IMG/VR virus record: IMGVR_UViG_3300027816_000052
Coordinates: 480 to 64,479 of that record
From: a virus
Direction: 5' to 3' (one strand)
DNA: 64,000 bases
Shown here: positions 156 to 40,310 of the stretch, piece by piece
Position numbering within the stretch: position 1 is the stretch's first letter
Layout: every line of letters starts with the position of its first letter
Translations under genes and position numbers: made by a program
The notes under the pieces: generated by a model
The model's input: only the letters and a program-made list of their open reading frames with translations
The model's database searches: none
Told to the model about the DNA's origin: nothing

Positions 156-635
156 ATGAAAAAGATTAAATTAACAGAATCCGACCTTTATAATATTATA
201 GAGCGAGTTCTTCTTGAGCAAGAGGAAAATAATAAACGTGTTTGGAATACAACTCCAGAACGTTTTATTATGGTTCTTAATAATGTTTTTAATGGAAATT
301 CTGAAATGTTCAGAAAAATTCTTAATAAAAAATATGATAACATTATTATTAATGAAGATTTGGATTTGAGTGAATCACGAATTAAAACCTTACCTGATAA
401 TCTTAAAGTTAAAGGTTATCTTAATTTAAATTATACAAAAATAGAATCCTTACCGGATAATCTTCATGTTGAGGGGAATTTGTATTTAGCTTTTACACGA
501 ATTTATTCTTTACCGGATAATCTTCGTGTTGGAGGTAAAATCTATATTCATGGAACACTATTAGTTAGAAATAGTGATTTAGTTGCGGAATATAGAAACA
601 AACATAAAATTGAAGGATATTTTTGGTCATCATGA
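156..635 (+). CDS. LRR-like 20-aa tandem-repeat family protein, short member with 3 repeats
   Basis: N-terminus MKKIKLTESDLYNIIERVLLEQEE is shared with 25962..26669(-) and 42394..43218. Three xSLPDNLxVxGxLxL repeats. C-terminal GTLLVRNSDLVAEYRNK tail. Confidence 0.7.
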   Translation: MKKIKLTESDLYNIIERVLLEQEENNKRVWNTTPERFIMVLNNVFNGNSEMFRKILNKKYDNIIINEDLDLSESRIKTLPDNLKVKGYLNLNYTKIESLPDNLHVEGNLYLAFTRIYSLPDNLRVGGKIYIHGTLLVRNSDLVAEYRNKHKIEGYFWSS

Positions 636-1027
636 TATCAATAATAATTTTCATATTAATCGCATTATTTGCAAATAGAGAATCTTCTTTTGATTTTACC
701 AAAATAAAAAATCATGAGAAAATTAATCACATTCAATCATGGATATATCGAGCAACTTTTGTTATATTTATAATACTGCTTACGAACCTTTCAATCTTCA
801 ATAAAATAATTTTATCGATAGGTTCAGCATTTTTATTTTCATCAATATTCAGAGCAAGATTAAATCACAGAAGAAAAAAAGATTTAACATATATAAGCAA
901 TAGTAATTATTATGATTCATTTTTTATAAAACTTTTCCCAAAAAAACATGGTATGATGATATATGTTGTTGAAATCATTATCTTTGTAACCCCAACAATA
1001 ATCTATATAGTAACAAACAATGGATAA
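623..1027 (+). CDS. Hypothetical small membrane protein
   Basis: 134-aa ORF with several hydrophobic segments. It overlaps the upstream gene by 13 nt. No recognisable motif. Confidence 0.45.
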   Translation: MVIMISIIIFILIALFANRESSFDFTKIKNHEKINHIQSWIYRATFVIFIILLTNLSIFNKIILSIGSAFLFSSIFRARLNHRRKKDLTYISNSNYYDSFFIKLFPKKHGMMIYVVEIIIFVTPTIIYIVTNNG

Positions 1028-1271
1028 AAAAATATTATACTTTACAGCAGCATGGTGTGGACCATGTAGAGCAATGGCTCCAGCAATTGAAGAACTTTCA
1101 TCGACTCTGAATATTGAAAAAATTGATGTTGACTCAAAGGATGGTAGAATCTTTGATTATAAAATCAAAGCGGTCCCCTCTTTTGTGTTAGTTGACCAAC
1201 AAAATAATGAATTAAAAAGAGTTGTCGGACTTCAATCAAAAGATACATTAAGAAATTTGTTTAACGATTAA
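1020..1271 (+). CDS. trx: Thioredoxin
   Basis: 83 aa with the canonical WCGPC active site (FTAAWCGPCRAMAP). Typical thioredoxin length. Confidence 0.8.
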   Translation: MDKKILYFTAAWCGPCRAMAPAIEELSSTLNIEKIDVDSKDGRIFDYKIKAVPSFVLVDQQNNELKRVVGLQSKDTLRNLFND

Positions 1272-1274
1272 AAA

Positions 1275-1451
1275 ATGTGGGTTATAGTTAAATTTATTAA
1301 AAATAAAGATGGAAAAGAACTTCCAGTAATTATTTTGGACTCTCAAGAAGAAATATTAGAATTTGAGAATGATGAGGACGCACAAAAACAAAAAAATTTG
1401 TTTTTGATTAATTCGGATTCTGGATATAGATATGAAGTAAAGAAAATTTAA
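1275..1451 (+). CDS. Hypothetical small protein (58 aa), not in the supplied ORF track
   Basis: ATG 1275, TAA 1449-1451. Translates MWVIVKFIKNKDGKELPVIILDSQEEILEFENDEDAQKQKNLFLINSDSGYRYEVKKI. Fills the gap between flanking genes. Confidence 0.35.
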   Translation: MWVIVKFIKNKDGKELPVIILDSQEEILEFENDEDAQKQKNLFLINSDSGYRYEVKKI

Positions 1452-1457
1452 CTTCAT

Positions 1458-1652
1458 ATGGATGAATTAAAGAAAAAAATTAAAGAAAGTCACTATAGAA
1501 AATTTTTGGGTGTTGCACCTGAAGGTTTTATTATCATTCCTGAAGTGACATTTGAAAAATTAAAAGATTTTGATTTTTGGAAGGAATGGAAAAATAATCC
1601 TGAATATTTGAGGGAAGAAGCAATTAAAGACACTAAAGAAAATTTTTTTTAG
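1458..1652 (+). CDS. Hypothetical protein
   Basis: 64-aa ORF tightly following the previous gene. No motif recognised. Confidence 0.4.
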   Translation: MDELKKKIKESHYRKFLGVAPEGFIIIPEVTFEKLKDFDFWKEWKNNPEYLREEAIKDTKENFF

Positions 1653-1702
1653 AAAACATTTGGAAGTTTGAAAAGAAGTATCTATCTTTGTGTTGTTAAA
1701 AT

Positions 1703-1778
1703 GCTCCTATAGCTCAGTTGGTCAGAGCGCCAAGCTTATACCTTGGGTCTGTCACAGGTTCAAGTCCTGTTAGGAGTA
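1703..1778 (+). tRNA. tRNA-Ile (anticodon TAT as folded)
   Basis: Hand fold: acceptor GCTCCTA/TAGGAGT, D-arm GCTC...GAGC, anticodon stem CCAAG/CTTGG with loop CTTATAC, T-arm ACAGG-TTCAAGT-CCTGT, 7-nt variable loop. Confidence 0.55.
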
Positions 1779-1786
1779 CGAAATAT

Positions 1787-1860
1787 TGTGGGGTGGAGCA
1801 GATGGTTAGCTCGGAGGTCTCATAAATCTCAGGTCGCTGGTTCAAGTCCAGCCCCCGCAA
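1787..1860 (+). tRNA. tRNA-Met (anticodon CAT; could be a lysidine-modified Ile)
   Basis: Acceptor TGTGGGG/CCCCGCA, D-arm GAGC/GCTC, anticodon stem GAGGT/ATCTC with loop CTCATAA, T-arm GCTGG-TTCAAGT-CCAGC. Confidence 0.75.
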
Positions 1861-2001
1861 CAAAATGTTGATTAGTAGTTTAGTGGTTGAACTAAAAAGA
1901 AAATCTGACGCTCAGTAGCAATAAATACCACCAGTCAGCTTCGTTCTAATTAACATTTTATTTTTATTGTTCTTTGACATATTTATCTTAAAAAAATTAA
2001 T

Positions 2002-2205
2002 ATGCAAAAAATATCTTTTATTAAATTTAATTTTAAAAATGGATTAATTCATTTATTGACATTATTTTTTGGTAGTTTAATATTATTACCAATAACAGGT
2101 AATGAGATTTTTGAATTTAAAATTTGGTTCATTATTTTATTGTTTCTTAGTATCTTTATGACGTACTTCAATTATCGTGTTTGGAAAAAATTAAAAATTA
2201 AATAA
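2002..2205 (+). CDS. Hypothetical small hydrophobic protein
   Basis: 67-aa ORF with two hydrophobic stretches, between tRNA genes. Weak call. Confidence 0.3.
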   Translation: MQKISFIKFNFKNGLIHLLTLFFGSLILLPITGNEIFEFKIWFIILLFLSIFMTYFNYRVWKKLKIK

Positions 2206-2869
2206 TAATTCTTTGATTTATTATGTTTGTGATAATATCAAGATATTTTTGAGAGGTAATCTCTTTAAAATATTTTTGTGCTGATGTATCAATAACACAA
2301 AAATCAATTTTTGCGTCATGACATGCTTTTGACTTTGATTTATCATTTTCTTGAATTTGATTTAATTTTTTAATGCCATAAATTGGTTCATAGTGAAAAA
2401 TTCCATTAAGTTCAAATGCAATATTTAATGATGGAATATAAATATCTAATTCTGAGTTAATAGCTAATTTATCATTAAATTTGATATCTAGGTTTGGGTA
2501 TAAAAATTCTAACTGCGATTGAATCCAAATTTCAAGTTTTGATTTTCTGTTGCCGTGTTTTTTATTTTTATTGTTATATGTTGCGGCACAAGATTTCGAA
2601 CAAAAATGATTTATAGATCTAGAAATTTGATTATTTGCTTTGATAAATTTTTTATCACAATTAGTACATGTAACCTCTTTTCTTTTTTTTGCTGACAAAC
2701 CATTACATTGTATTGAACAAAAACGTAATTGATTTTTTTGTTTTTCAATATTATATTTAATATGTCTTTTTTCAATATAGAAAAAATTATCACAATATTC
2801 ACATATTAATCTTAACTTATCAAAATGTTTTGCATTATAATAATCAAATTCTGAATACGCTTTTTTCAT
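2198..2869 (-). CDS. Cys-rich Zn-finger protein with a C-terminal DUF559/Vsr-like endonuclease motif, a homing-endonuclease-like gene inside the tRNA cluster
   Basis: 223 aa with multiple CxxC pairs (CEYCDN, CSIQCNG, CTNCDKK, CSKSCA). C-terminus LDIYIPSLNIAFELNGIFHYEP resembles the D...E-x-(D/N)-G-x-x-H motif of Vsr/DUF559 endonucleases. Confidence 0.5.
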   Translation of the reverse strand: MKKAYSEFDYYNAKHFDKLRLICEYCDNFFYIEKRHIKYNIEKQKNQLRFCSIQCNGLSAKKRKEVTCTNCDKKFIKANNQISRSINHFCSKSCAATYNNKNKKHGNRKSKLEIWIQSQLEFLYPNLDIKFNDKLAINSELDIYIPSLNIAFELNGIFHYEPIYGIKKLNQIQENDKSKSKACHDAKIDFCVIDTSAQKYFKEITSQKYLDIITNIINQRIII

Positions 2870-2935
2870 TTATACATATATTTATATATAAATATATTAA
2901 ATTTAATTTTCGAATCTGAAGTACTTTGAAATTAT

Positions 2936-3020
2936 GGAGGATCCCACTGGCGCGGTACGTAGTCTTGAAAACTATGAGGTCGGTAATACCGATGTGAAGG
3001 TTCGAGTCCATCATCCTCCG
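2936..3020 (+). tRNA. tRNA-Ser (anticodon TGA), type II with long variable arm; D-arm fold imperfect
   Basis: Acceptor GGAGGAT/ATCCTCC, anticodon stem GTAGT/ACTAT with loop CTTGAAA, variable arm TCGGT-AAT-ACCGA, T-loop GGTTCGAGTCC. Confidence 0.5.
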
Positions 3021-3203
3021 CTAGATAAAATTTGGAAGTTTGAAATTTTAGTTGTATCTTTGTAGAGCGTGTGAAGCATGTGAGCTAAGTTATCGAGGTG
3101 CTTGGTACGATTCGCGGTCGTGTTGCGCTGGAAACCATCAAAGGTTAAAAGACGTGAAACCAAGTTAAATGGTAAAATCTGACACATTCAGCCTTAAATT
3201 TAC

Positions 3204-3276
3204 GCCACTGTAGCTCAATTGGCAGAGCACTAGTTTTGTAAACTAGCGGTTAGCGGTTCGACTCCGCTCAGTGGCT
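3204..3276 (+). tRNA. tRNA-Thr (anticodon TGT); CCA encoded at 3277-3279
   Basis: Acceptor GCCACTG/CAGTGGC, D-arm GCTC/GAGC, anticodon stem CTAGT/ACTAG with loop TTTGTAA, T-arm AGCGG-TTCGACT-CCGCT. Confidence 0.8.
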
Positions 3277-3301
3277 CCAAGAGTTCTTTGAAAAAGTTTG
3301 A

Positions 3302-3432
3302 GAAAAAGCGGAAGTACGAAAGTACGGGAAGATTGTGATAAAAAGAACAAGGAAATAGTCCCTCCCATTGCAGTCACAAGCATAATTGGGTAGAGTGGAA
3401 AGGTGAGTCCACGAACCGCTTTTTCTCATTTT
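3302..3432 (+). ncRNA. Candidate structured small RNA or long hairpin ending in a T-run
   Basis: 10-bp pairing GAAAAAGCGG (3302-3311) with CCGCTTTTTC (3416-3425) encloses about 105 nt with an internal hairpin GTGGA-aaggtgag-TCCAC. Followed by TTTTCTCATTTT. No plausible ORF; GC is locally higher. Confidence 0.25.
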
Positions 3433-3771
3433 ACATGAAAATATAAAATTAGTGAGCAAAGAGAAAGTGACTTCACCAGTCAGCGTAGTATACAACGGAA
3501 GCACGGGCAAGAAAGTAGCATGGTAGCTACCTGAAATAAAAATCGATTGCTGGGACAAAACTGAAAACGTTTAATTGGATACCCTTAAAATGAAGATATA
3601 CCTCACTAACTTTATATTAAAAATTTGTGGTCAGTACGGATTGACGTACCTAGTAAGCTGGTAAATTACATTACGAAGAAACGCTGAAGCGACTAAGAAA
3701 TGTACTAATATGTAATTATTAGTGGGTTGTTGTTAAGTCTTAGTATGTTAGTTTTTAACACCACAAAAAAA

Positions 3772-3845
3772 GCGAGTGTAGCTTAGTTGATTAAAGCGCC
3801 GTCCTTCCAAGTCGGAGATCGTCAGTTTGAGTCTGACCACTCGCT
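3772..3845 (+). tRNA. tRNA-Gly (anticodon TCC)
   Basis: Acceptor GCGAGTG/CACTCGC, D-arm GCTT/AAGC, anticodon stem CCGTC/GTCGG (one U-U) with loop CTTCCAA, T-arm GTCAG-TTTGAGT-CTGAC. Confidence 0.7.
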
Positions 3846-3931
3846 CACTAATCCCCTCTAACCTCTGAAGAAATTCAAGTTATTGGGTAAAACAGTTTCT
3901 TTTCATATTTATAGAATAAACATCTATCAAT

Positions 3932-18889: not shown

Positions 18890-18904
18890 AGAAAAGGGGG
18901 AAAC

Positions 18905-21091
18905 TTATTTCCCCTTTTCAATTTTAACCTTATCTTTTACGAATTTTAATTTATACTTTTTCATCTCAATCATCTCACCCTTTAGAATTTCCTCGGATAT
19001 AAAATCTTCCACATATTCTTGTATTGCTCGTTTTAATGGTCTTGCACCAAACTGAGGGTCAAATCCAACTTTAGCGATGTGCTCGACCAATGAATTATCA
19101 TATTTGATAAAATATTTTAATTTATTTAATCTTTCTACCAATCTATCCAATTCAATCTTAACAATTTCCTTGACATCATCTTCTTTTAATGTATTAAAGA
19201 CAACAACCTCATCAATTCTATTTAAGAATTCTGGAGCAAAGAAATTCTTCATTTCTTTTTGAATTATATCTCGTTTAGCTTCTTCATTAGCAAATGAGTT
19301 TTTACCGAAGCCAATTCCAGAACCAAAATCTTGTATTTTTTTAACACCAAGATTTGATGTTAAAATAATTAATGAGTTTCTAAAGTTTATTTTTCTACCT
19401 AAACTATCAGTTATAAAACCTTCGTCTAAAACCCTCAATAAGATTGAGAATATTTCTTTATTTGCTTTTTCAACCTCATCAAATAAAATAACCGAATATG
19501 GTTTGTTTTTTACTTGTTCGGTTAATTGACCACCTTTATCATAACCAACATAACCGGGGGGAGCACCAACCAATCTAGATACGCTATGTTTTTCTTGATA
19601 TTCTGACATATCAATTCTAATTAAGTTATCTTCGCTACCAAAGATTTCTTTCGCCATCTGTTTAGCTAAATGAGTTTTACCAACACCACTATTACCAAGC
19701 AATATGAACGCACCAATCGGTCTATTTGGGTCTCTAATACCTAATCTATTTCTGCGAATAGCTTTCGCCATTTTTGTAATTGCTTCTTGTTGACCAACAA
19801 CTTTTTCACCCACATTCTTTTCCAAATTCAATAAATTCTTTGTATCGTCAGTGTTTAATTTGTTAATTGGTATTTTTGTCATTGTTGATACAACATCATA
19901 AACCAATTCAGTTGTAACTTCTTTTCTTTTGGTTAAAAGAGTTTCTTCAAATTTCTTTTTTTCTTCATTAAGTTTATCGACAATCTTTTTTTCTTTATCC
20001 CTTAATTCCGCAGCTTTCTCATAATCCTGTTGTTTTACAACGATTAATTTTTCTTCCTTAATTTTATGTGCTTCATCTTTAAGGTGGTTAATAATTTCCG
20101 GTAATTCAATATCTACTTGACTTCTAGCACCAACTTCATCAATAATGTCAAATGCTTTATCGGGAAATTCTCTGTCAGTTATATATCTATCAGCAAGGTT
20201 TACACATAAATCTAAAACCTCATCATTGTAACTTACTCGATGATAAAATTCATATTTATCTTTAACGTTTTTTAAAATTTCTAATGTTTCTTCTTTTGAG
20301 GGTGAATCAACAACAACTTTTTGAAATCTTCGTTCTAATGCACCATCTTTTTCAAAATTTTCACGATATTCATCTAGCGTTGTTGCACCGATACATTGAA
20401 TTTCTCCTCTTGCTAATGCTGGTTTAAAGATGTTTGACGCATCTAATGACCCAGATGAATTACCAGCACCAACTAATGTATGAATTTCATCAATAAAGAC
20501 AATTATATCGGGGTTATTTTGTAATTCTTCAAGAATAACTTTAAGACGTTCTTCAAATTGACCTCTATATTTTGTCCCAGCAACAATAGATGTTAAATCA
20601 AGTAGTACAATTCTTTTATTTTCAAGGTTTCTTGGACATTCACCTAGATAAATTTTCATAGCAAGACCTTCAACTATGGCAGTTTTACCACAATTATGTG
20701 AAGATATGCCATTTGTTAAATATTTTCTTTCCTCATCTAATACTTCTAAATCAAAAGTATCGTGAACCCCAATATATTCTTTTTCAATAACATCATGTAA
20801 TTGATTATCGTCATACCAAACTAAATCTCCAATATTAATATTCTTTAATGATAACCAATATGTGTTATTCTGTTCTTCAACTAAATTATTTGCACAATCA
20901 AAAGATGTCTCAACTAAATGGGATTCTGAACCAGAAAGCTCAACGTTATTTGATAATGTTATTTTATAACACTCTTTTTTTGTTTTTTTAAACAAATTAC
21001 CAATTAATTTGTAACCAGATGGGGTCTTTACTTTATAAGTTCCCCCGTTTTTTTCAACATCGTTAAAAAAATCTTCAATTTTTATTTTCAT
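18905..21091 (-). CDS. ClpA/ClpB-like AAA+ chaperone ATPase: C-terminal intein part plus the rest of the extein. It is in frame with 21098..21391 across a TAA.
   Basis: 728 aa. Begins inside a mini-intein that ends ...GVHDTFDLEV...TNGISSHN. Extein then resumes at CGKTAIVEGLA (Walker A). Second AAA+ module GNSGVGKTHLAKQMA...RIDMSEYQEKHSVSRLVGAPPGYVGY. Confidence 0.75.
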   Translation of the reverse strand: MKIKIEDFFNDVEKNGGTYKVKTPSGYKLIGNLFKKTKKECYKITLSNNVELSGSESHLVETSFDCANNLVEEQNNTYWLSLKNINIGDLVWYDDNQLHDVIEKEYIGVHDTFDLEVLDEERKYLTNGISSHNCGKTAIVEGLAMKIYLGECPRNLENKRIVLLDLTSIVAGTKYRGQFEERLKVILEELQNNPDIIVFIDEIHTLVGAGNSSGSLDASNIFKPALARGEIQCIGATTLDEYRENFEKDGALERRFQKVVVDSPSKEETLEILKNVKDKYEFYHRVSYNDEVLDLCVNLADRYITDREFPDKAFDIIDEVGARSQVDIELPEIINHLKDEAHKIKEEKLIVVKQQDYEKAAELRDKEKKIVDKLNEEKKKFEETLLTKRKEVTTELVYDVVSTMTKIPINKLNTDDTKNLLNLEKNVGEKVVGQQEAITKMAKAIRRNRLGIRDPNRPIGAFILLGNSGVGKTHLAKQMAKEIFGSEDNLIRIDMSEYQEKHSVSRLVGAPPGYVGYDKGGQLTEQVKNKPYSVILFDEVEKANKEIFSILLRVLDEGFITDSLGRKINFRNSLIILTSNLGVKKIQDFGSGIGFGKNSFANEEAKRDIIQKEMKNFFAPEFLNRIDEVVVFNTLKEDDVKEIVKIELDRLVERLNKLKYFIKYDNSLVEHIAKVGFDPQFGARPLKRAIQEYVEDFISEEILKGEMIEMKKYKLKFVKDKVKIEKGK

Positions 21092-21172
21092 TTTAAATTA
21101 TAATATTTCAATATTATGCGTATTAACATCAGAAATTTTTTCAACCTCTATGTACGTATCACCAAGTACACA
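20693..21172 (-). other. Mini-intein (about 160 codons) in the ClpA/B-like P-loop, with an internal in-frame stop
   Basis: Starts at Cys codon 21170-21172 after GEPG. Block [14 protein letters not shown] at 21098-21100. C-terminal blocks VHDTFDLEV and NGISSHN, then +1 Cys (20690-20692). No endonuclease domain. Confidence 0.65.
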
Positions 21173-21391
21173 CCCCGGTTCACCAATTATAATTGGATTA
21201 TTTTTCTTTCTTCTAGATAAGATTTGAGCAATTCTGTTAATTTCATTTTCTCTACCAATAACAGGGTCAAGTTTTCCTTGTTCTGCCATTTTTATCAAAT
21301 CTTTACTAAAATTATCTAAAACCGGTGTTGAACCATCTTTTGTTTTTTCGGAACCAGATTTTTGGTTGCTATTTTCTTCAAATTCTATCAT
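21098..21391 (-). CDS. N-terminal extein of the ClpA/B-like ATPase plus intein N-terminus, terminated by an in-frame TAA
   Basis: [33 protein letters not shown] matches the ClpA/B AAA1 N-terminus. It then runs into [10 protein letters not shown]...THNIEIL*. Confidence 0.7.
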
Positions 21392-30537: not shown

Positions 30538-30552
30538 GTTTATTATTTCTTG

Positions 30553-30627
30553 TAGTTCCTTTCGGACTCGAACCGAAAACCTTTTCCACGTCAAGGAAAC
30601 GCTCTGAACCAATTGAGCTAAGGAACT
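30553..30627 (-). tRNA. tRNA-Val (anticodon GAC)
   Basis: Acceptor AGTTCCT/AGGAACT, D-arm GCTC/GAGC, anticodon stem TTTCC/GGAAA with loop TTGACGT, T-arm TTCGG-TTCGAGT-CCGAA. Paralog of tRNA-Val(TAC) at 35585..35659. Confidence 0.75.
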
Positions 30628-30756
30628 GTTAACAAAGGGGGTTAATGATAACCCCATTTGTTTTCTACCAACCTAAATCTTTCGAAACTTTGCCATGTCA
30701 CCTGTAAATAGTGACACTTATTCAGAAGTTGGTGGACCCGGTGAGGCTCTTTTTTG

Positions 30757-30826
30757 TACTCCGTGAGAGATTCGAACTCTCAGCCTTCTCGTTAGGAGTG
30801 AGATGCTCATCCAGTTGAGACGGGGC
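30757..30826 (-). tRNA. Degenerate tRNA-Arg-like gene (anticodon CCT as folded); possible pseudogene
   Basis: Good T-arm GAGAG-TTCGAAT-CTCTC and anticodon arm TCTCA-CTCCTAA-CGAGA. Acceptor GCCCCGT/ACGGAGT has a C-A mismatch and the D region is too short. A tRNA 3'-end remnant ...CACCGGGTCCACCA lies just downstream (30730-30749). Confidence 0.35.
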
Positions 30827-30831
30827 ATGAA

Positions 30832-31335
30832 CTATCTATATCTGTTCTCCACGTACCAATATATGGCTTTATTTTTCACCTCAACACGTTCCTTGACTAT
30901 ACCACGAACTCCAGATGAAGTAGCATATTTTCTTGATAGAGACTTGTCAGACAATATAAGTTGTATTACATATCCACTCCACACACTATCATAGAGTCCG
31001 TCCGACTCCACAACTTCTTCCTCTTGTGTTGTTATTGGAGAGAATTCTGGAAGTCTACGAAACTCTTTCTCTGTTCCATCTTCCGCGTAGAAGCGGAAAC
31101 CATCACTCTCGGCAATAATGGTCAAATCACCTTCCATAAGATCTATCAGACAAGATTGTATACCAACCCTGACCTTGTATAATCCAGATTCAAAATGCTT
31201 AGTGATTTCTCCTTTTCCATATTCAACTTCTTTCAATTGATGATCTATTACAACAATTCTTAGATCTTCACTAGGAGCTTTCACGCGCAACTCATACTCG
31301 ACAATGGTTTTAGTTGGTATTGTGGTCACTCTCAT
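30832..31335 (-). CDS. Hypothetical protein with higher GC than surroundings
   Basis: 167-aa ORF. Local GC is visibly above the window average. Confidence 0.5.
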   Translation of the reverse strand: MRVTTIPTKTIVEYELRVKAPSEDLRIVVIDHQLKEVEYGKGEITKHFESGLYKVRVGIQSCLIDLMEGDLTIIAESDGFRFYAEDGTEKEFRRLPEFSPITTQEEEVVESDGLYDSVWSGYVIQLILSDKSLSRKYATSSGVRGIVKERVEVKNKAIYWYVENRYR

Positions 31336-31399
31336 TTGGCAGCGTCTTTTATGATGTGCTTGACCTCTTCGCTGGAGAAGCCCATTATGTGCTTGAGTA

Positions 31400-32593
31400 T
31401 CATTTTTGTTTCAAATCTAAGTTAAGATCTTTAGCCGATTTCATCATCATAATTTCCATGAAATTTGCCGCCGCATTGCTAGAACCACTTGAGTTACCAC
31501 TCATATATTGAGGAACAACATTTCCTTGATATTTCGAGAAGGCGTTTGCCCAATATTCTTGTGATTTAAGCCAAGCATCCAACTTTTGCTCAAGAGCGCC
31601 ATTAGCAGACATTACAAGACGTTTCTTTTCAGCTTCACCTTGACCTTCAAGAATTTGTTTTTCTTTATTAAGTCTAGCAGTTTCAACATCAAGTTCAGCA
31701 ACTCGTTTACGCGATTCAGCCTCAGTCACTTGTTTTGCTTTAATAACCTCTTGATCCCACTTAGCTTTAGCTGCTTCAGCTTCACCTTGTTTTGCGATGG
31801 TAATAGCATCTTGTTCGGCTTTTTTAGAATTTGCAATTGCCAATTGTACACTCATTAATGCTTGTTGTTGATTTTGAATTTGCTTTTCAACGGTCGCATC
31901 ATATGTAATACCATTAATTGAAATATTATAGAGTCTAATTCCATATCCAGCAATTGGTGATTCTTCTTGTCGAATTGGTTGACCGGGAGTCTTTTCAACA
32001 ATCTCAACTTTGGTTACTAATTTTTCCTCACCAGTCAATGGATCAGCTTCTTTAACCTCAACTTGTTTAGTTTTATATACACCTCTAGAAGCTTGATCTT
32101 CAATATAGAAAATCAAATCATTTCTTTTTTCCGCATACGACTCTTTAGATGTCATAAGCGGTCCAGTCATGTAAACTGATTTTTCAATGTTAGTTTTAAT
32201 TAACTGATTCTCCAACGCTTCTTGCGAACCAAATGTTGAGTGTAATTTAATAATTTGTTCAGAAGATAAGGGAAGATCATAACGAACCGATCCTGAAATT
32301 GTTGCATGTCCACCATCATTCCATTTTACGGCAATTGATTTATCTGTTTCACCCTCCTCTTTTGGAGAAGAAAACCAAAATTGATTTGATTTACGATAAT
32401 GTGTTGCCCTACCAAATAATTGCCAAACCCAACCCGGTTCAGTATATGTATGAAGATTACCATCAAATGGGTCTTGAATAACAACAACTTCTCCAGCATC
32501 AACATCTTCCCAAATAAGGGGAACAAAGATTAGACCAAGAACAATAAATACGCCAATAACAATTGCACTAATAGATTTTTTAAAGTTTTCCAT
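31400..32593 (-). CDS. SPFH/band-7 (HflK/C, stomatin-like) domain membrane protein
   Basis: 397 aa. N-terminal TM helix ISAIVIGVFIVLGLIFVPLIW, then a long A/E/K/Q-rich coiled-coil segment typical of SPFH proteins. Confidence 0.55.
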   Translation of the reverse strand: MENFKKSISAIVIGVFIVLGLIFVPLIWEDVDAGEVVVIQDPFDGNLHTYTEPGWVWQLFGRATHYRKSNQFWFSSPKEEGETDKSIAVKWNDGGHATISGSVRYDLPLSSEQIIKLHSTFGSQEALENQLIKTNIEKSVYMTGPLMTSKESYAEKRNDLIFYIEDQASRGVYKTKQVEVKEADPLTGEEKLVTKVEIVEKTPGQPIRQEESPIAGYGIRLYNISINGITYDATVEKQIQNQQQALMSVQLAIANSKKAEQDAITIAKQGEAEAAKAKWDQEVIKAKQVTEAESRKRVAELDVETARLNKEKQILEGQGEAEKKRLVMSANGALEQKLDAWLKSQEYWANAFSKYQGNVVPQYMSGNSSGSSNAAANFMEIMMMKSAKDLNLDLKQK

Positions 32594-32599
32594 GTTTTT

Positions 32600-32866
32600 T
32601 TAAATTTTTGTTTTGTTTTTAATTTTATTAATTTTATTTACAGTTTGATTAACTTCATCATTCACCACATTATACTTCTCAACCGCCTTATCAACTTTTT
32701 CTTCCAGTTCATCTATCGTTGATGAGTGTTGGATTTTTTCTTTATTTTTCTTTTTAAGAAACCAAAAAAATTCTAATTTGGGAATAAAAAGAGGTAGAAT
32801 TATTTGTGTTATAATTGTTAGTATGCTTATAACTGTTAATAAAAATATTATAATTATTTTAGCCAT
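32600..32866 (-). CDS. Small membrane protein
   Basis: 88 aa with N-terminal TM helix. Confidence 0.4.
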   Translation of the reverse strand: MAKIIIIFLLTVISILTIITQIILPLFIPKLEFFWFLKKKNKEKIQHSSTIDELEEKVDKAVEKYNVVNDEVNQTVNKINKIKNKTKI

Positions 32867-33071
32867 TTTGGTTTTTAAATTTAAAAATTATATCATTTAT
32901 ATCATTTCTTATTGATTCCATATCATCTATGTCAAGATAAAATGAAAATGAATCATCACCTTGACTACAGGTTAACCATATTTCATCATCACCACCTTGA
33001 ATAAAAAATTCCAAGTCTTTATCTCCTTGTGAAAATTTATATGTTTTTATTGTTTTCATTTTATAGTACAA
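32859..33071 (-). CDS. Hypothetical small protein
   Basis: 70-aa ORF. Confidence 0.35.
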   Translation of the reverse strand: MYYKMKTIKTYKFSQGDKDLEFFIQGGDDEIWLTCSQGDDSFSFYLDIDDMESIRNDINDIIFKFKNQNG

Positions 33072-33100
33072 ATATAGTATATGTTTTTAACATAAACAAA

Positions 33101-33286
33101 TCAAATGAAAATTTCACCAAATAAGGAAATATATTCATTTTTTGGTATTTTACAATAAACATCACCAACCCAAAAAAATACATCGTCACCAATTTCATTC
33201 GGTTCGGTGATATTCCATTTTTTAACAATATTGACAGGTATTTTGTCGTAATCTAAATTAGGGAAAGCAACATGTACGTAGTCCAT
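33101..33286 (-). CDS. Hypothetical small protein
   Basis: 61-aa ORF. Confidence 0.35.
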   Translation of the reverse strand: MDYVHVAFPNLDYDKIPVNIVKKWNITEPNEIGDDVFFWVGDVYCKIPKNEYISLFGEIFI

Positions 33287-33365
33287 TTTTTTTTAGTTTA
33301 CACAAAGATAATAACAAATATTTAAATTTCCAATAACTGATAATATTTATTTTAAAAGTTGGTAT

Positions 33366-34151
33366 ATGAGAAATCTAATCAAAAAAGTTTTGCGTGAATT
33401 TGTATTAAAAGAAGCGGAAGAGACAGACCACGCAAAATGTCGTTATGTTAATAGAGTTGCGAATGAAAGAAATCATAAAACAACAAATGTTAAGGACAAA
33501 ATTGGTAAAGAAGGAATTGAAAACATTAAATTTATCATCGAACTTGTTAAAAAAATAGATTTTCCAAAAAATATCGATATTGCAATTAATTTAGCTTATT
33601 CACCATCAAGAGATGTTAACAATCCAGAAGGTTTTGAAAACGCAAAAGGATTTTATTTTAATGACCCTAATGATAATTGTACTAAAAAAGAAAATATTGA
33701 ACCTAGCTGGGGACATTATTTGTGGTTAATAATAAGAGATAATTCTATCACAACAATAATGATTCATAGAACCAAACCAAAAGATTTAAGAGAGGTTAAT
33801 ATAGATAGATTAATAAATAATTTAAATAACTATTTTGGACTTAATATTAAAGAAAAAGAACTTTCGTCGGCTGAAAATTTAAAACAAATAGATTTAACAA
33901 ATGAGAGACTTTTCTTTAAGATGATTAGTAAACCAGAAAAAAAATCTGAGGAATCTCCTTTAAAAAATGAAGAAATACTTCTTGTTAAACAAAAAAAATA
34001 TGTTATTGATAAAATTAAAAAAACAATTCATCCAAAAAATAAACCAAAAGAAATACAGAAAATAGAAGAATTTATCAATTTAATTTTAAATTTAGAACCT
34101 TTTACCCCTGAAGATGAGAAAGCTATTGAATACTTAATTTCTTTGATTTGA
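33366..34151 (+). CDS. Hypothetical protein with an LxE-type N-terminal module
   Basis: 261 aa. N-terminus MRNLIKKVLREFVLKEAEE resembles the KVLLEQEE motif of the repeat family. Confidence 0.5.
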   Translation: MRNLIKKVLREFVLKEAEETDHAKCRYVNRVANERNHKTTNVKDKIGKEGIENIKFIIELVKKIDFPKNIDIAINLAYSPSRDVNNPEGFENAKGFYFNDPNDNCTKKENIEPSWGHYLWLIIRDNSITTIMIHRTKPKDLREVNIDRLINNLNNYFGLNIKEKELSSAENLKQIDLTNERLFFKMISKPEKKSEESPLKNEEILLVKQKKYVIDKIKKTIHPKNKPKEIQKIEEFINLILNLEPFTPEDEKAIEYLISLI

Positions 34152-34439
34152 TTTTATAATTAATCTGTCATAATGCGTGAAATAACCCCGTTTATTAGCC
34201 TCATCTAATATTTCATCAGTTGTTGGTCTTGGTTGTTTTTCCAAATAATATTTGATATTTTTTTCATCCATATATTCTCTAATGGTTTCTTCAACATTAC
34301 TAAATAAGCGATAAATATTATCAGCTAAAATATCAGCATCAACCAATCCGGTTACATTTTCCATCATATCATCAAAAACAAAATTTGATGATTCATCCTT
34401 TTTAATAATCAAGATATAATAGTCGTATTTCATCTGCAA
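34134..34439 (-). CDS. Hypothetical protein
   Basis: 101-aa ORF. Confidence 0.45.
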   Translation of the reverse strand: MQMKYDYYILIIKKDESSNFVFDDMMENVTGLVDADILADNIYRLFSNVEETIREYMDEKNIKYYLEKQPRPTTDEILDEANKRGYFTHYDRLIIKSNQRN

Positions 34440-34885
34440 TGATAATCCGCCGCTTTAGTTGCGATTTGAATATTTGGTTTTACATTAACTTGATACCCCA
34501 ATGAATTCGCCCACCCCTTTGTTGCACTGATTAATTGATTACTTTTATAAAATTCATCCTCATTATAATCCATATCTAATTCAAGTTTTAGACTGACATT
34601 AACTTTGTTTTTAAACCATTCCGCAATTTCAATCGTGCTTTCAGCTTCCTTCCAAAGTCTAGTCCATAAATCATTAATTCTATTGATTCTTTCTTTTGTG
34701 AAAATATAATGGACACCCCTAGTACCATAACGATAGGCGATAACGGAAACATAAACGGTTTCATTTGACACGTTTTGTGAATCAGTACCGATATGGATTT
34801 TTACATCAGGATTTTCCCTGATAACCTCAAGAGTATGTTTTACAACATCTACTGGAGTTCCATCTAATTTTCTAAACACTTTCAT
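34430..34885 (-). CDS. Hypothetical protein
   Basis: 151-aa ORF, 10-nt overlap with the downstream gene. Confidence 0.45.
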   Translation of the reverse strand: MKVFRKLDGTPVDVVKHTLEVIRENPDVKIHIGTDSQNVSNETVYVSVIAYRYGTRGVHYIFTKERINRINDLWTRLWKEAESTIEIAEWFKNKVNVSLKLELDMDYNEDEFYKSNQLISATKGWANSLGYQVNVKPNIQIATKAADYHCR

Positions 34886-34897
34886 TTTATAGTTATT

Positions 34898-35254
34898 TTA
34901 TTCGTCTACACTGATGAGGGGGAATTCAATTTTAAGTCTATAATGAATAAAATCATTCATATCTTCCACTAAATCAAAATATTTTCTATAAGACTCACCA
35001 TTTGACATTTTTATTTTTAAAAATGGTTTGTAATAAACAACATAATCCTCAATATATAAGTTTTTGTTTTTAAGAATCTCTTCTTCTGTTATAAAAAAAG
35101 TTCCATTGTAATACCAATCAGCGTAATAAAATCCTTCTTTTCTTTCTTTACAAAATAAACTTTTTTTTCTGCGATTTTGCCAAACAAATTTATCATTTTC
35201 TATTTTTTCAAATTTTCTAATACTACAAATTTGTTTGATATTAATTTCTTCCAT
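34898..35254 (-). CDS. Hypothetical protein
   Basis: 118-aa ORF. Confidence 0.45.
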   Translation of the reverse strand: MEEINIKQICSIRKFEKIENDKFVWQNRRKKSLFCKERKEGFYYADWYYNGTFFITEEEILKNKNLYIEDYVVYYKPFLKIKMSNGESYRKYFDLVEDMNDFIHYRLKIEFPLISVDE

Positions 35255-35399
35255 TTTTAAAAGTTTGGTACAAAGATATGAAAAGTTTTATGAAAAAAAA
35301 AATTGCAACGATTTTAGCCTACGTTAATATTTTGTGGGAAGAGCTTATCGTTATTAAGTTTCGCTTATTATACCAACACAATTTTTAATTCATAATACA

Positions 35400-35475
35400 T
35401 GGTGGACCGGAAGGGATTCGAACCCTCATCCTCCTGAGTGCAAATCAGGTGCTCATCCAGTTGAGCTACCAGCCC
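35400..35475 (-). tRNA. tRNA-Ala (anticodon TGC), CCA encoded
   Basis: Reverse complement GGGCTGG-TA-GCTC-AACTGGAT-GAGC-A-CCTGA-TTTGCAC-TCAGG-AGGAT-GAGGG-TTCGAAT-CCCTT-CCGGTCC-A-CCA. Confidence 0.8.
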
Positions 35476-35584
35476 ATGTTCCCGTTTTTCTTCATCATTT
35501 AGTTCACCACCCAGATGAACAAGTGGTGGATTTTGCTTTTGGAAGTCTGCATTACAGACCGTCACCACGGGAAAACCAACGCAG

Positions 35585-35659
35585 TAGTTCCTGTGTGACT
35601 TGAACACACGCCCTTTCGAATGTAAATCGAACGCTCTAAACCAACTGAGCTAAGGAACT
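35585..35659 (-). tRNA. tRNA-Val (anticodon TAC)
   Basis: Acceptor AGTTCCT/AGGAACT, D-arm GCTC/GAGC, anticodon stem TTCGA/TCGAA with loop TTTACAT, T-arm GTGTG-TTCAAGT-CACAC. Confidence 0.75.
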
Positions 35660-35667
35660 ATATTTCG

Positions 35668-35739
35668 CACCCCCTGAAGAATTCGAATCCTCACCAACGA
35701 TGTTGGAGATCGTTACTCTACCAATTGAGCTAAAGGGGT
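35668..35739 (-). tRNA. tRNA-Trp (anticodon CCA)
   Basis: Acceptor ACCCCTT/AGGGGGT, D-arm GCTC/GAGT, anticodon stem ACGAT/ATCGT with loop CTCCAAC, T-arm GAGGA-TTCGAAT-TCTTC. Confidence 0.7.
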
Positions 35740-35749
35740 ATGTATTTTG

Positions 35750-35825
35750 GGTGAATAACGAGACTCGAACTCGCAAAAATCCGGGACCACAATCCGGAGT
35801 GTATACCAATTCCACCATATTCACC
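35750..35825 (-). tRNA. tRNA-His (anticodon GTG) with G-1
   Basis: Extra 5' G pairs with discriminator C. Acceptor GTGAATA/TATTCAC. Anticodon stem CCGGA/CCCGG (A-C closing pair) with loop TTGTGGT. T-arm GCGAG-TTCGAGT-CTCGT. Confidence 0.6.
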
Positions 35826-35833
35826 ATAATTCG

Positions 35834-35912
35834 TACTCCCGGTGAGAATCGAACTCACACCCTTTCGGATCTGTTCCTAAAACAGACGCGGCTACCGTTA
35901 CGCCACAGGAGT
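35834..35912 (-). tRNA. tRNA-Leu (anticodon TAG), short type-II variable arm
   Basis: Acceptor ACTCCTG/CGGGAGT, anticodon stem TCTGT/ACAGA with loop TTTAGGA, 11-nt variable region, T-arm GTGAG-TTCGATT-CTCAC. Confidence 0.55.
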
Positions 35913-35963
35913 GTTTAACATCACAAAGATATAACTTTATTTTCTTATCTCCAAATTAAACTG

Positions 35964-36035
35964 AGGTCGAAGTGAGAATCGAACTCACGTAAGAAGTTTT
36001 GCAGACTTCCGCCTAAACCACTCGACCATTCGACC
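35964..36035 (-). tRNA. tRNA-Cys (anticodon GCA)
   Basis: Acceptor GGTCGAA/TTCGACC, anticodon stem GAAGT/ACTTC with loop CTGCAAA, T-arm GTGAG-TTCGATT-CTCAC. Confidence 0.75.
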
Positions 36036-36221
36036 TTACTTTTCACCTAATTTTCTAATAATACCTCCCTTAGCTTCATACCAAGTACCCTGATAATTAA
36101 ATTCAAATCCGGTATCTCTCATACAAATACCCATAAATTCACCGTCTCTTGTTTTTAAACCAACCCCTGAAAAAACATCTTCAAGAATTATTTCACCGTT
36201 TTCATCTGTTGTTAATTTCAT
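36036..36221 (-). CDS. Small hypothetical protein (61 aa) between tRNA-Cys and tRNA-Arg; start trimmed to avoid the tRNA
   Basis: Listed ORF 36036..36296 would overlap tRNA-Arg. The internal ATG at 36219-36221 gives MKLTTDENGEIILEDVF... Confidence 0.4.
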   Translation of the reverse strand: MKLTTDENGEIILEDVFSGVGLKTRDGEFMGICMRDTGFEFNYQGTWYEAKGGIIRKLGEK

Positions 36222-36238
36222 AATTTTAATTTTTTTTG

Positions 36239-36310
36239 TATCCCCCGAAGGATTCGAACCCTCACCAACTGAGTCGAAATCAGGTATGCTATCCATTACA
36301 CTAGAGGGAC
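36239..36310 (-). tRNA. tRNA-Arg (anticodon TCG)
   Basis: Acceptor GTCCCTC/GGGGGAT (two G-U), D-arm GTGT/GCAT, anticodon stem CCTGA/TCAGT (one mismatch) with loop TTTCGAC, T-arm GAGGG-TTCGAAT-CCTTC. Confidence 0.65.
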
Positions 36311-37013: not shown

Positions 37014-37303
37014 CGAATTAAATATTTTGCTTGCATTTGAGATGTAAAATCAGCCTCACCCATATCTGTAACAGGAATTTCAAAACTTATCACTTCAGTA
37101 TCCTCACCACCATCTCCCAAAAATAATGAATAATAAGCAACACCGAGTCTGATTTTATCAAAAAACGCTATTGGATTGTTTTTATATAGCATTTTTTTAA
37201 TTTCGTTTTTTCTTATTGTATTTAATTTTTTATCCATTTTATCTAAAGTTATTTTATCAACGCTATCCATTGCTTCTTTATATAATTCTTCGTCTGTCTT
37301 CAT
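37001..37303 (-). CDS. Hypothetical protein
   Basis: 100-aa ORF overlapping neighbours by 13 and 4 nt. Confidence 0.45.
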   Translation of the reverse strand: MKTDEELYKEAMDSVDKITLDKMDKKLNTIRKNEIKKMLYKNNPIAFFDKIRLGVAYYSLFLGDGGEDTEVISFEIPVTDMGEADFTSQMQAKYLIRWLA

Positions 37304-38817
37304 CGTATTAAATTAATATTACCAATTTTATTAATTAAGTTATTAGCTATAATTCCGCTAAATTTATAAACATAAACACCATTCTGACAATTAAGCCCAT
37401 CCCATGATTCGTTTTGATTGGTAAATTCATAAATTTTCTCACCCCAACTATTATAAATTTGCATTTTAAAATTTTCAATTTTTGAAATTGTTGTTACTTT
37501 AAATGAATCATTTATATTATCATAATCGGGTGAAAATGTGTTAGGAATATAAATATCTCCACAAATTTCTGAATAAATTTCTAATGTTGTTAAATCGCCA
37601 AAACAACCAAATTCATTTATCTCATAAACACTTAATATGTTTTCAAAATTAGAAATGTTTGGTAAATTTATTGTTATAGTATTTTGTGTCAAATTTAATG
37701 TATCTTGATTTAAAATCCAAATATATGAAGAATTTATATTACCAGTTGTTAAAAATTGTAAAGTTCTATCGAATTCTGAGCAATTTACAAAACTATTTTC
37801 ACCGATAATAATAACATCTTCAGGATTTGGATTCACAACAACTAATATCGAATCGTTGTTTCTACAACCAAAAGAATCAATAAATGTATATTCAACCCAA
37901 TTTGTTCCAAATTGTGGTAAATAATTAGGACCAATATTCCAAGTACCACCAATAGGGAATGCTTGCATTTGAACCGGTGAATCATTAAAACATAGTGTGT
38001 CAACAGGATTAATTAATACTACAGGTAATTGATTTACGTTTACAGTAAAAATAGTTGTATCTATACAATTATTAATTGTTTCTTCAATAATACTAATTTG
38101 TTGAGTCCCTATATTATTCCAAATATTTATTTGGGGATTACCTGTATAAAAAATTGAGTTATTTGTTGGATTTGCTAATTCATGAATTGTCGTATCCCCA
38201 AGACATACGGTTTGGACCAATGGGGTTATTGGATTACTTTCAAAGTCTAAAGGAATATTGGTACCATTAAATAAATTAAATGGTGATAGATTACAGTTAT
38301 TATTTCCCCAAGATCCCCAAGTACCGTCAGCACCAGCGGTTATTTGAATTATAATGTCCTCAGAGGAACATGTCTCAACAACTGTGGTTGTAAAACAAAA
38401 ATTCCATGTACAATTTCCAAAATCACCCCAATCATTACCGGGATTTCCATCAATAACACCACCTTGATTTGTTTCAAAAAACCAACCCGGTCCAGCAGAA
38501 ATACCCGTTGATGATGATGTTACCGTACCAGAAATCCAAACCCAATTACCAGAACCACCATTACAATTGGTAGGTGATGCTTGCGGAATAGGGGGTGTTA
38601 AAGAAGGACTTAGATTAATTTCAAATCCCTCAACCCAATTTGAACTAACGTTCAAACCGTTCCAACCATTCATTGTATAACACACATTTAAAACAGTTCC
38701 ACTAGCGTATTGACCATTAATTGGGGTTGGGTTTATTGAAAAACTTTCAATCCCATTACATTGATTAAACGCTAAATTACTAATTAAAGTAAAAATTATT
38801 AATAATACTTTTTTCAT
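37300..38817 (-). CDS. Secreted protein with signal peptide and a T9SS type-B / CHU_C-like C-terminal sorting domain
   Basis: 505 aa. N-terminus MKKVLLIIFTLISNLAFNQ. C-terminus IPNTFSPDYDNINDSFKV...NGVYVYKF matches the gliding-motility C-terminal domain pattern PN.F.PN.DG.ND.F. Confidence 0.6.
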   Translation of the reverse strand: MKKVLLIIFTLISNLAFNQCNGIESFSINPTPINGQYASGTVLNVCYTMNGWNGLNVSSNWVEGFEINLSPSLTPPIPQASPTNCNGGSGNWVWISGTVTSSSTGISAGPGWFFETNQGGVIDGNPGNDWGDFGNCTWNFCFTTTVVETCSSEDIIIQITAGADGTWGSWGNNNCNLSPFNLFNGTNIPLDFESNPITPLVQTVCLGDTTIHELANPTNNSIFYTGNPQINIWNNIGTQQISIIEETINNCIDTTIFTVNVNQLPVVLINPVDTLCFNDSPVQMQAFPIGGTWNIGPNYLPQFGTNWVEYTFIDSFGCRNNDSILVVVNPNPEDVIIIGENSFVNCSEFDRTLQFLTTGNINSSYIWILNQDTLNLTQNTITINLPNISNFENILSVYEINEFGCFGDLTTLEIYSEICGDIYIPNTFSPDYDNINDSFKVTTISKIENFKMQIYNSWGEKIYEFTNQNESWDGLNCQNGVYVYKFSGIIANNLINKIGNINLIR

Positions 38818-39510: not shown

Positions 39511-39526
39511 TATTATTAATTTTTAG

Positions 39527-39600
39527 TTGTCCCACTCTGACTCGAACAGAGAACCTCCACATTATCAGTGTGACGATCTAACCAATTGATCTATGAGACA
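39527..39600 (-). tRNA. tRNA-Ile (anticodon GAT)
   Basis: Acceptor TGTCTCA/TGGGACA, D-arm GATC/GATC, anticodon stem TCACA/TGTGG with loop CTGATAA, T-arm CTCTG-TTCGAGT-CAGAG. Confidence 0.75.
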
Positions 39601-39842
39601 ATAAGTGGTTATTTTATCGCTTTTATCCCTTGATCAGAGGGGAAGTGCTCGTAAAATAACCAAAACCAAACTTCAAATATCATTATATGTTCTATATAAA
39701 ATTCGACAAAAGATAAACCCTAAAAAGCAACAAATCAAATTTATAATGGTAACATCATAAGATTGGGGATATAATATTTGTGTATATACACCAGCTAGGA
39801 ATAAGGTAATGTAAGATAATACTTTAAGTACGTGTTTCATTT

Positions 39843-40091
39843 TTATATAAAATAAGGTCCGTAGATAACACCCCCTGACTCAACAACACCCTTTTCCATT
39901 TCCCAAGCTTTTTTTAATGCTTCTTTAAGGGTATATACAGGACTAGCACCATTACCCCTAATTAACATGTGTGCGTGTTTGAAAACTCTTTTCTTTGAGA
40001 TTTCTTTGGGAAAAATGATTAAGCTATTATCGCTATTTTTTTGATTTAAATAACGAGTTAACATTCCTTTTTTTGGTTCCATATCATTCAT
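39843..40091 (-). CDS. Hypothetical protein
   Basis: 82-aa ORF. Confidence 0.4.
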   Translation of the reverse strand: MNDMEPKKGMLTRYLNQKNSDNSLIIFPKEISKKRVFKHAHMLIRGNGASPVYTLKEALKKAWEMEKGVVESGGVIYGPYFI

Positions 40092-40221
40092 TGTTTTTTT
40101 CTTTATCTTTAATTTCTTCTATACGTCTGATGGTTGAGGGTTTAGTACATCTTCCACCGTAACCACAAAGATACGAAAGATTTCTGGTTTTTCTACGCAC
40201 AATTTTACCTTGTTTACTCAT
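40084..40221 (-). CDS. Small basic Cys-containing protein (45 aa) inside the tRNA cluster, not in the ORF track
   Basis: MSKQGKIVRRKTRNLSYLCGYGGRCTKPSTIRRIEEIKDKEKNNE. ATG at 40219-40221, TGA at 40084-40086. Confidence 0.3.
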   Translation of the reverse strand: MSKQGKIVRRKTRNLSYLCGYGGRCTKPSTIRRIEEIKDKEKNNE

Positions 40222-40238
40222 TTTGATTTTTTTATATG

Positions 40239-40310
40239 CGGTCTATGACGGGTTCGATCCGTCTACTCTACCGTGACAGGGTAGGATGATAGCCATTTCA
40301 CCAATAGACC
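40239..40310 (-). tRNA. tRNA-Asp (anticodon GTC)
   Basis: Acceptor GGTCTAT/ATAGACC, anticodon stem CTACC/GGTAG with loop CTGTCAC, T-arm GACGG-ATCGAAC-CCGTC. Confidence 0.8.

Follow-up and report, generated by a model that had tools for sequence, protein, structure and literature searches.

The window analysed here, a 64,000-nt stretch of viral DNA (IMGVR_UViG_3300027816_000052, positions 480 to 64,479), carries on its minus strand two open reading frames (ORFs) that between them encode a ClpA/B/C-type AAA+ ATPase, and the Walker A motif of this ATPase is interrupted by a 157-residue Hint domain (GEPG/intein/CGKT; slashes in sequences mark intein boundaries). The Hint domain is itself divided between the two ORFs. 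ORF1 ends within it at a TAA stop codon, while ORF2 starts within it and passes the intein end (...NGISSHN/CGKTAIVEGLA) 133 residues after its own start. Read on the minus strand, the two ORFs share one frame, and the TAA plus 6 nt lie between them. We propose that the locus encodes a phage Hsp100/Clp-type ATPase whose Walker A loop holds a naturally split class-1 intein of the atypical kind, and that protein trans-splicing would join the two polypeptides; we place the probability of this reading at about 85%. The features of the locus, including the N- and C-terminal intein fragments (IntN and IntC), are collected in Table 1.

Table 1. Features of the intein locus, given as positions in the window
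Feature	Position	Strand	Description
ORF1	21391..21098	minus	97 aa; ends with TAA at 21100..21098
ORF2	ATG at 21091 to 18905	minus	728 aa; begins MKIKIEDFF, MKIKIEDFFNDVEK
N-extein	21173..21391	minus	first 73 aa of the ClpA/B/C-type AAA+ ATPase; closes with Walker A, first half; L002 and L015, both contiguous homologues, align to it
IntN	21101..21172	minus	24 aa; Cys1 codon 21172-21170; holds block A and strand β2 (residues 7-13)
TAA stop ending the N-precursor, conserved split point	21098..21100	minus	same in 6 independent assemblies; stop at equal intein position in relatives
Spacer TTTAAA, stop to next ATG	21092..21097	minus	6 nt; relatives have a ~1.2-kb nuclease-like gene or its remnants here
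IntC	20693..21091	minus	133 aa, from Met at 21091 to Asn157 codon 20695-20693; helix α1, blocks B, F and G
Block B GSESH	20929..20918	minus	S55/H58 of IntC, equal to S79/H82 of the fused intein
C-extein	18908..20692	minus	595 aa; +1 Cys codon 20692-20690, then GKT; rest of AAA1, short M-domain with UVR motif, AAA2, D2-small
Terminator-like GC hairpin and T-run	18897..18914	minus	overlaps the ORF2 stop codon 18905-18907

The intein and its host gene

Inspection of the Hint domain revealed the features of a class-1 intein, namely Cys1 in block A, the S-x-x-H of block B, the Asp of block F (D138), the His-Asn pair of block G (H156-N157) and a +1 Cys or Thr, with blocks F and G both lying within IntC (fused-intein numbering). 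A first-pass annotation of this DNA, made from the letters alone, had described a Hint domain interrupting the Walker A of a ClpA/B-like ATPase, with C-terminal blocks and a +1 Cys, and two same-frame ORFs divided by TAA and two further codons, and our results agree with it on each of these points; its intein coordinates, 20693..21172, are exact from the first base of Cys1 to the last of Asn157. Its assignment of block B to a THN motif has to be corrected. The true block B is S79-x-x-H82 (GSESH) in ORF2, and a sequence search against solved structures aligned GSESH with block B (SEEH) of gp41-1 (6qaz). The THN represents a (T/S)-H motif at residues 18-19, in a loop of IntN, that is conserved within the Clp group and absent from the compact relatives P0044 and P0048. 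A family profile scanned over all six frames of the window found no second copy of the Clp intein.

The Pfam domains identified in ORF2 were AAA, AAA_lid_9, a UVR motif, AAA_2 and ClpB_D2-small, and the Pfam intein models matched neither ORF1 nor ORF2. Conceptual removal of the 157 intein residues yields a 668-aa product with an intact P-loop, GEPGCGKT. Compared with the NCBIfam equivalogs, this spliced product scored 812 bits for ClpB (TIGR03346; cut-off 1232) and 698 bits for ClpA (cut-off 993), reaching neither cut-off. Judged by its domain content, the host protein is a class-I Hsp100/Clp two-ring ATPase without an N-domain and with a short, UVR-containing middle domain, to which no single named orthologue can be assigned.

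The intein-less relatives L015, L018, L022, L045, L055, L062 and L065 are uninterrupted at the site (GEPGCGKTAIVEGLA), and L002, the contiguous homologue from a 642-kb uncultured phage, has GEPGVGKS. Since the contiguous homologues are uninterrupted there, the insertion lies exactly inside Walker A. These intein-less relatives, apart from L002, are close homologues that carry a Cys in Walker A (GEPGCGKT), at a position where Val, as in L002, is usual in most Clp ATPases; the Cys of the intein-less alleles is either the footprint of precise intein loss or part of a pre-adapted homing site that provides the +1 nucleophile. Another intein, also atypically split but different, interrupts the P-loop of a related Clp-type gene, L061 (IMGVR_UViG_3300028581_000022, ~2790-3380), three residues further downstream. 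Its sequence is GEPGVGK/CICSDTNIVIRNDITGEVIKISLNEFLNNK up to a stop codon, with a 30-aa IntN that appears to include the first helix, followed by a short gap and an IntC running from METLKK… to …GILSHN/TSIVEGLA, and it indicates a recurrent, independent invasion of the Clp P-loop.

Conservation and origin of the break

The first-pass annotation had named a sequencing error as the finding that would remove the stop codon. We found the 97-aa ORF, the TAA, the TTTAAA spacer and the ATG all unchanged in six independent assemblies, which differ in sample and pipeline of origin (Logan SRR5574092; JGI 3300031963 and 3300031857; ENA ERZ27247954, ERZ27247975 and ERZ27247979), with 0-1 mismatches over the 2212-2487 nt compared, and the ORF2 protein is identical on 19 contigs. 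As the junction is identical in all six assemblies, a sequencing error is ruled out, and the idea that the stop codon is an artefact of sequencing or assembly is already refuted and retains next to no probability.

A scan of viral contigs revealed eleven more loci where this gene carries this intein, their proteins being 56-74% identical, and the intein is broken at the same place in all eleven. IntN comprises 24 aa in ten of them and 26 aa in L011, with a stop after it, and the Met with which IntC starts occupies the corresponding residue (MKI(K/T/S)I) except in L012 and L013, whose IntC bears a 16-residue N-terminal extension (MMENT…). The distance from stop to ATG, 6 nt in the window, is 7, 11, 24, 29, 121, 360, 1198, 1208 or 1209 nt in the relatives. 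Their two halves have a frame offset of 0, 1 or 2, and the gap often contains several stops. Most relatives therefore cannot produce a single precursor by readthrough, and it is by coincidence that the window's two ORFs share a frame.

These offsets bear directly on readthrough or suppression of the TAA, which the first-pass annotation had also proposed and which would yield a single precursor for splicing in cis. The arrangement in the window, where the ORFs are in frame and TAA-TTT-AAA alone separates them, would suit such a mechanism, but a shared frame has a 1-in-3 chance and is unremarkable, and the relatives keep both pieces despite their frame offsets and the stops in their gaps. Furthermore, TAA terminates 35 of the 53 long ORFs in the window, and none of the window's 22 tRNAs carries a suppressor anticodon. 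Readthrough is thus unnecessary and not a general mechanism for these loci, and we regard it as extremely improbable. A recoded TAA or a suppressor tRNA was likewise rejected on these two counts, TAA being the main genuine stop of the window.

The ~1.2-kb gaps of L006, L009, L012/L013 and L014 hold one same-strand ORF of 382-401 aa, which resembles a 430-aa ORF located between the halves of the PhoH-like gene of L003 (described below); in L006 the stop of the inserted ORF overlaps the IntC start (ORF end 3004, ATG at 3001). The inserted ORF of the relatives returned no Pfam match and no PDB sequence match, whether a single sequence or a 5-sequence profile was used. Its C-terminal ~70 aa matched PHROG 9019, "Holliday junction resolvase", weakly in four of five members, which suggests a PD-(D/E)xK-type nuclease. 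Two further gaps contain parts of the same ORF: the 360 nt of L010 are a 5'-deleted, frameshifted remnant, and the 121 nt of L008 are its last ~35 codons. By comparison with these relatives, the window has lost the nuclease-like gene completely, with the TAA plus 6 nt left, and the break marks what appears to be the former seat of a free-standing homing-endonuclease-like gene. A TATTTAT(A/T/G)G motif is located directly after the IntN stop in the relatives with the inserted ORF, or with its remnant in L010.

In inteins, the canonical site of endonuclease-domain insertion and of splitting lies between blocks B and F. The first-pass annotation had located the stop at the usual endonuclease insertion site; this is incorrect, as the break is close to the N-terminus, after β2 and before α1. 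Its association of the break with an endonuclease therefore fails as a statement about inteins in general, but holds for the relatives of the Clp intein, where a free-standing endonuclease-like gene sits exactly there.

Nei-Gojobori estimates from codon alignments gave rough ratios of nonsynonymous to synonymous substitution rates (dN/dS) of 0.01-0.20 for IntN, 0.04-0.27 for IntC and 0.01-0.17 for the exteins, and the least saturated pair, L008/L009 (dS 0.6-1.0), gave 0.17 for IntN and 0.12 for IntC, indicating purifying selection on both intein pieces. The residues of the splicing reaction are likewise conserved. In a family alignment of 44 sequences, made up of fused, contiguous and IntC-only members, H82, D138 and N157 never vary, and at least 90% conservation is seen for S79 and H156. 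All IntN-bearing sequences have Cys1, which comes directly after GEPG in the window and each of its eleven relatives; at +1, L012 and L013 have Thr and the others Cys.

Conservation of this kind is difficult to reconcile with a recent nonsense mutation of a contiguous mini-intein and a decaying Clp-type gene, the pseudogene reading that the first-pass annotation had offered. That reading accounts for an in-frame stop within a domain, and contiguous family members do exist (P0030, P0044, P0048 and P0072), yet both intein pieces and both exteins display low dN/dS, the catalytic residues are kept, and the 728-aa ORF2 is intact on all of the contigs that carry it identically. Moreover, the break point and the IntC Met start are common to eleven diverged loci, and the break coincides with the endonuclease-gene insertion site of the relatives and not with a random position. 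We therefore consider inactivation very improbable.

Fold, proposed trans-splicing and the points against it

An AlphaFold2 model of the fused IntN and IntC, for which a 34-sequence alignment built from library proteins served as input, displayed a Hint fold with a mean predicted local distance difference test score (pLDDT) of 93.2 and a predicted template modeling score (pTM) of 0.86; a single-sequence run was unusable (pLDDT 40). The model comprises a strand (residues 7-13), a less confident loop (14-22), a second strand (23-28), a helix (29-39) and then the usual Hint strands, and the break, between residues 24 and 25, falls after β2 and before helix α1. A Foldseek comparison with the PDB returned VidaL (6vgv) as the top match, with template modeling (TM) scores of 0.82/0.89, a root-mean-square deviation of 1.6 Å and ~17% sequence identity, and among the matches listed 50 of 50 were inteins or intein-like Hint (BIL) domains. 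Sequence matches to solved structures were to gp41-1, to CatC of the consensus atypical TerL intein (6dsl_B, a C-fragment) and to VidaL.

In the mechanism that we propose, the locus would form one transcription unit. ORF1 and ORF2 are probably co-transcribed, because we found no terminator-like site between them and one after ORF2, at 18897-18914. Translation of ORF2 would start independently or by re-initiation 6 nt past the stop; its leader is A/T-rich and without a Shine-Dalgarno sequence, as is typical for the genes of the window. A sigma-70-like match in the IntN coding sequence (21126..21097, 10/12) is no evidence of a promoter, given that the region holds 23 such matches against 17 ± 4 expected. 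The two products would be an N-precursor of 97 aa (73 of extein and 24 of IntN) and a C-precursor of 728 aa (133 of IntC and 595 of extein). The acidic IntN (β1-β2) would then dock into the nearly complete IntC and complete the Hint fold, upon which Cys1, Ser79/His82, Asp138, His156-Asn157 and the +1 Cys would perform class-1 trans-splicing, releasing the intein pieces and ligating the exteins into a 668-aa ATPase with GEPGCGKT restored. The first-pass annotation had listed two separate polypeptides among its options; this part fits the evidence, but the account is incomplete without protein trans-splicing, and the split intein had not been named.

Two separate polypeptides could also function without ligation, if the intein fragments no longer spliced and only held the pieces of the ATPase together. 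Such an arrangement has a precedent in a fragmented ribonucleotide reductase that is described as assembling via interaction domains from a mobile element (PMC3045599), and trans-splicing at our locus is itself predicted from sequence. The conservation of Cys1, S79/H82, D138, H156, N157 and the +1 Cys/Thr would nevertheless be unexpected were the chemistry dispensable, and an unspliced complex would keep 157 residues within GEPG/CGKT, disrupting the AAA1 P-loop. Non-covalent assembly hence appears improbable to us.

The anatomy of the locus, the conservation of the split, the selection, the fold and the series of remnants are established by the comparisons above, and it is on these that the trans-splicing reading is built. 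Several points weigh against it. We infer the expression of ORF1 and ORF2, the association of their products and the splicing chemistry at the locus. The structural model was built on an artificial fusion of IntN and IntC and not on a two-chain complex. At 24 aa, IntN is longer than the 16 aa of VidaL and bears an extra conserved loop at residues 14-22. For most pairs dS is near saturation, which makes dN/dS imprecise. The net charge of IntN is -3 to -6 and that of IntC residues 17-46 is +5 to +8 in 10 of 11 loci, but this complementarity is suggestive only. Finally, the tRNA survey covers 64 kb of the genome, and a suppressor tRNA may lie beyond that stretch.

The wider family, the phage and known split inteins

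An exhaustive HMMER search with IntC over 1.84 billion representatives identified 78 matches at E <= 1e-3; a word-indexed protein search with IntC found three relatives only and was uninformative. Most of IntC is matched by 60 library representatives. In 41 of them IntC forms the N-terminus of the protein itself, which implies an intein split at the same place, and in most of the 41 it is followed by the x-G-K-[ST] of diverse P-loop nucleoside triphosphatases (NTPases). P0004, P0005 and P0073 are further Clp-type proteins of the family. Among the remaining 19 are contiguous inteins (such as P0030, P0044, P0048 and P0072), forms with a 40-60-residue N-terminal extension, and the fusions P0028 and P0031, whose long N-terminal region is possibly endonuclease-like. 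A tblastn relative, gp17A/17B of Aeromonas phage PX29, has an IntN of 33 aa, and its depositors annotated the pair in GenBank as an N-intein and as a GIY-YIG endonuclease plus C-intein.

Two further members of the family deserve mention. P0003 (128 aa, ENA) has an IntC-like start, MKITIQDFFNMVESEGGTYKVKTPSGYKLIGN, and then switches to …WHVDHIRPITSF…; this second part looks HNH-like, and an endonuclease may have been inserted into, or recombined with, the IntC gene. The split architecture of the Clp intein recurs, as it does in PX29, in the 462-kb uncultured phage L003 (LR756500.1), where a related intein divides a PhoH-like gene (635-3897) within the P-loop. The order there is …GKAG/CLYPDEKIKIYKMKSKNKINSKNQQE with a stop codon, a free-standing 430-aa ORF, and an IntC with a ~60-aa N-terminal extension that ends in …GISSHN/TGKT.

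We offer one broader proposal tentatively and with less than even confidence, namely that the Clp intein of the window is one endpoint of a large unsurveyed intein lineage, which homes specifically into the Walker A loops of unrelated phage NTPases (AAA+, PhoH-like, RecA/DnaB-like, clamp-loader-like and Clp-type), is mainly split between β2 and α1, and is mobilised by a ~390-aa free-standing nuclease outside the described families. In the Clp lineage, the nuclease would have been lost stepwise while trans-splicing became fixed and obligatory, and splicing might time or gate ATPase activity in infection.

The window is derived from a T4-like phage with a probable Bacteroidota host, as judged from its gp20, gp23 and TerL homologues, a CHU_C domain, a GC content of 31% and 22 tRNAs. 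The host assignment draws on a protein with a CHU_C (type IX secretion) sorting domain at 37303-38817. The tRNA genes form three clusters (1703-3846, 30552-36310 and 39526-41547), and at 59138-60994 on the plus strand lies a gp23-like major capsid protein, in which the Pfam match starts only at residue 353 and ~350 extra N-terminal residues precede it; the extended capsid protein and the 22 tRNAs fit a large T4-like phage. A second, contiguous intein occupies residues ~337-640 of the T4-like portal protein (gp20; 52080-55217, plus strand). It starts …PGA/CIDLNTRIPLLDGRT…, has the block B TTPDH and an HNH-like segment, IIHHKDHNRFNNNPNNLLIMNGEDHLKYH, matches Pfam Intein_splicing at E = 3e-8, which is under the curated cut-off, and is unrelated to the Clp intein family. 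The motif ATATTTATA has 18 sites in the window against 4.3 expected, a number that 0 of 100 shuffles reached; many of the sites (examples are 3905, 14544, 17144, 23002, 28821 and 56483) lie 10-25 nt upstream of start codons, and the TATTTAT(A/T/G)G motif noted above behind the IntN stop of relatives is similar to it.

The searchable literature yielded no ClpA/B/C/X-type ATPase with an intein; atypically split phage inteins and fractured genes are already known, and it is the Clp-type host gene that is new within that literature. For intein specialists the locus will be unsurprising, and its use lies in annotation, in the study of split-intein evolution and as a source of short IntN fragments. 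Annotation pipelines would report a 97-aa hypothetical protein and an AAA ATPase whose 133 N-terminal residues go unexplained, or would call a pseudogene. The locus and its relatives provide an unusually complete fractured-gene series, from an endonuclease gene through frameshifted or truncated remnants to a clean 6-nt scar, in which the split state persists under selection once the endonuclease is gone, and the host range of split inteins is widened to a chaperone/unfoldase-type ATPase. There is demand for natural split inteins whose IntN is short enough to be made by peptide synthesis, and few of them exist (PMC13014065); the Clp-intein family supplies many new candidate pairs of a 24-aa IntN and a ~133-aa IntC for protein engineering.

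In natural atypically split inteins, which perform trans-splicing, IntN measures 15-37 aa (PMC13014065, PMC11766414). The Clp intein shares their layout, with its 24-aa IntN, a 133-aa IntC that bears blocks B, F and G, and a break near the N-terminus, and, as in naturally split inteins, its parts lie in separate ORFs, each joined to one extein part, in a conserved arrangement. Its closest structural counterpart is VidaL, which has in common with it a short IntN, a long IntC, cysteine dependence and the S1 split site, defined as the site after β2 and before α1 and assigned to VidaL and PolB16 (PMC13014065). The flank …SHA/SGK in the crystallised VidaL chain suggests that VidaL, too, is inserted in a P-loop. 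VidaL differs in its host gene and in its 16-aa IntN, without the extra conserved loop of the Clp intein, and its splicing is demonstrated, whereas that of the Clp intein is predicted. The AceL-TerL, GOS-TerL and Cat inteins are also natural phage split inteins, with an IntN of 25-37 aa and an IntC of 104-122 aa (PMC11766414, PMC2677866), and the CatC chain (6dsl_B) aligns with IntC of the Clp intein. However, this group is split after α1, which is the S2 site to which AceL-TerL and GOS-TerL have been assigned (PMC13014065), while α1 belongs to IntC in the Clp intein, and it resides in a terminase gene and not in the Walker A loop of a Clp ATPase.

The Walker A motif is a well-documented intein hot spot, and P-loop insertion is a documented preference (PMC4760082). 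The DnaB-b, MCM-a, RFC and other P-loop inteins resemble the Clp intein in their insertion within Walker A (PMC4760082), but they are contiguous, splice in cis and often carry a nested endonuclease, whereas the Clp intein is split near its N-terminus.

The arrangement in the relatives also recalls the "fractured genes" described by Dassa et al. (2009), in which a free-standing endonuclease gene lies between the intein halves (PMC2677866). The same work reported a gp41-7 locus without an endonuclease, as well as a terminase intein that has a long C-part and is "fractured at an unusual point" (PMC2677866). The layout of L006, L009, L012/L013 and L014 is exactly that of fractured genes, and the window is endonuclease-free like the published gp41-7 locus; with no endonuclease gene and only 6 nt between its halves, it falls outside the fractured-gene definition. 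Two other differences concern the inserted ORF of the relatives, which is tied weakly to a PD-(D/E)xK-type PHROG and not placed in the published Vsr-like family, and the host, which is a chaperone/unfoldase ATPase and not an enzyme of DNA metabolism.

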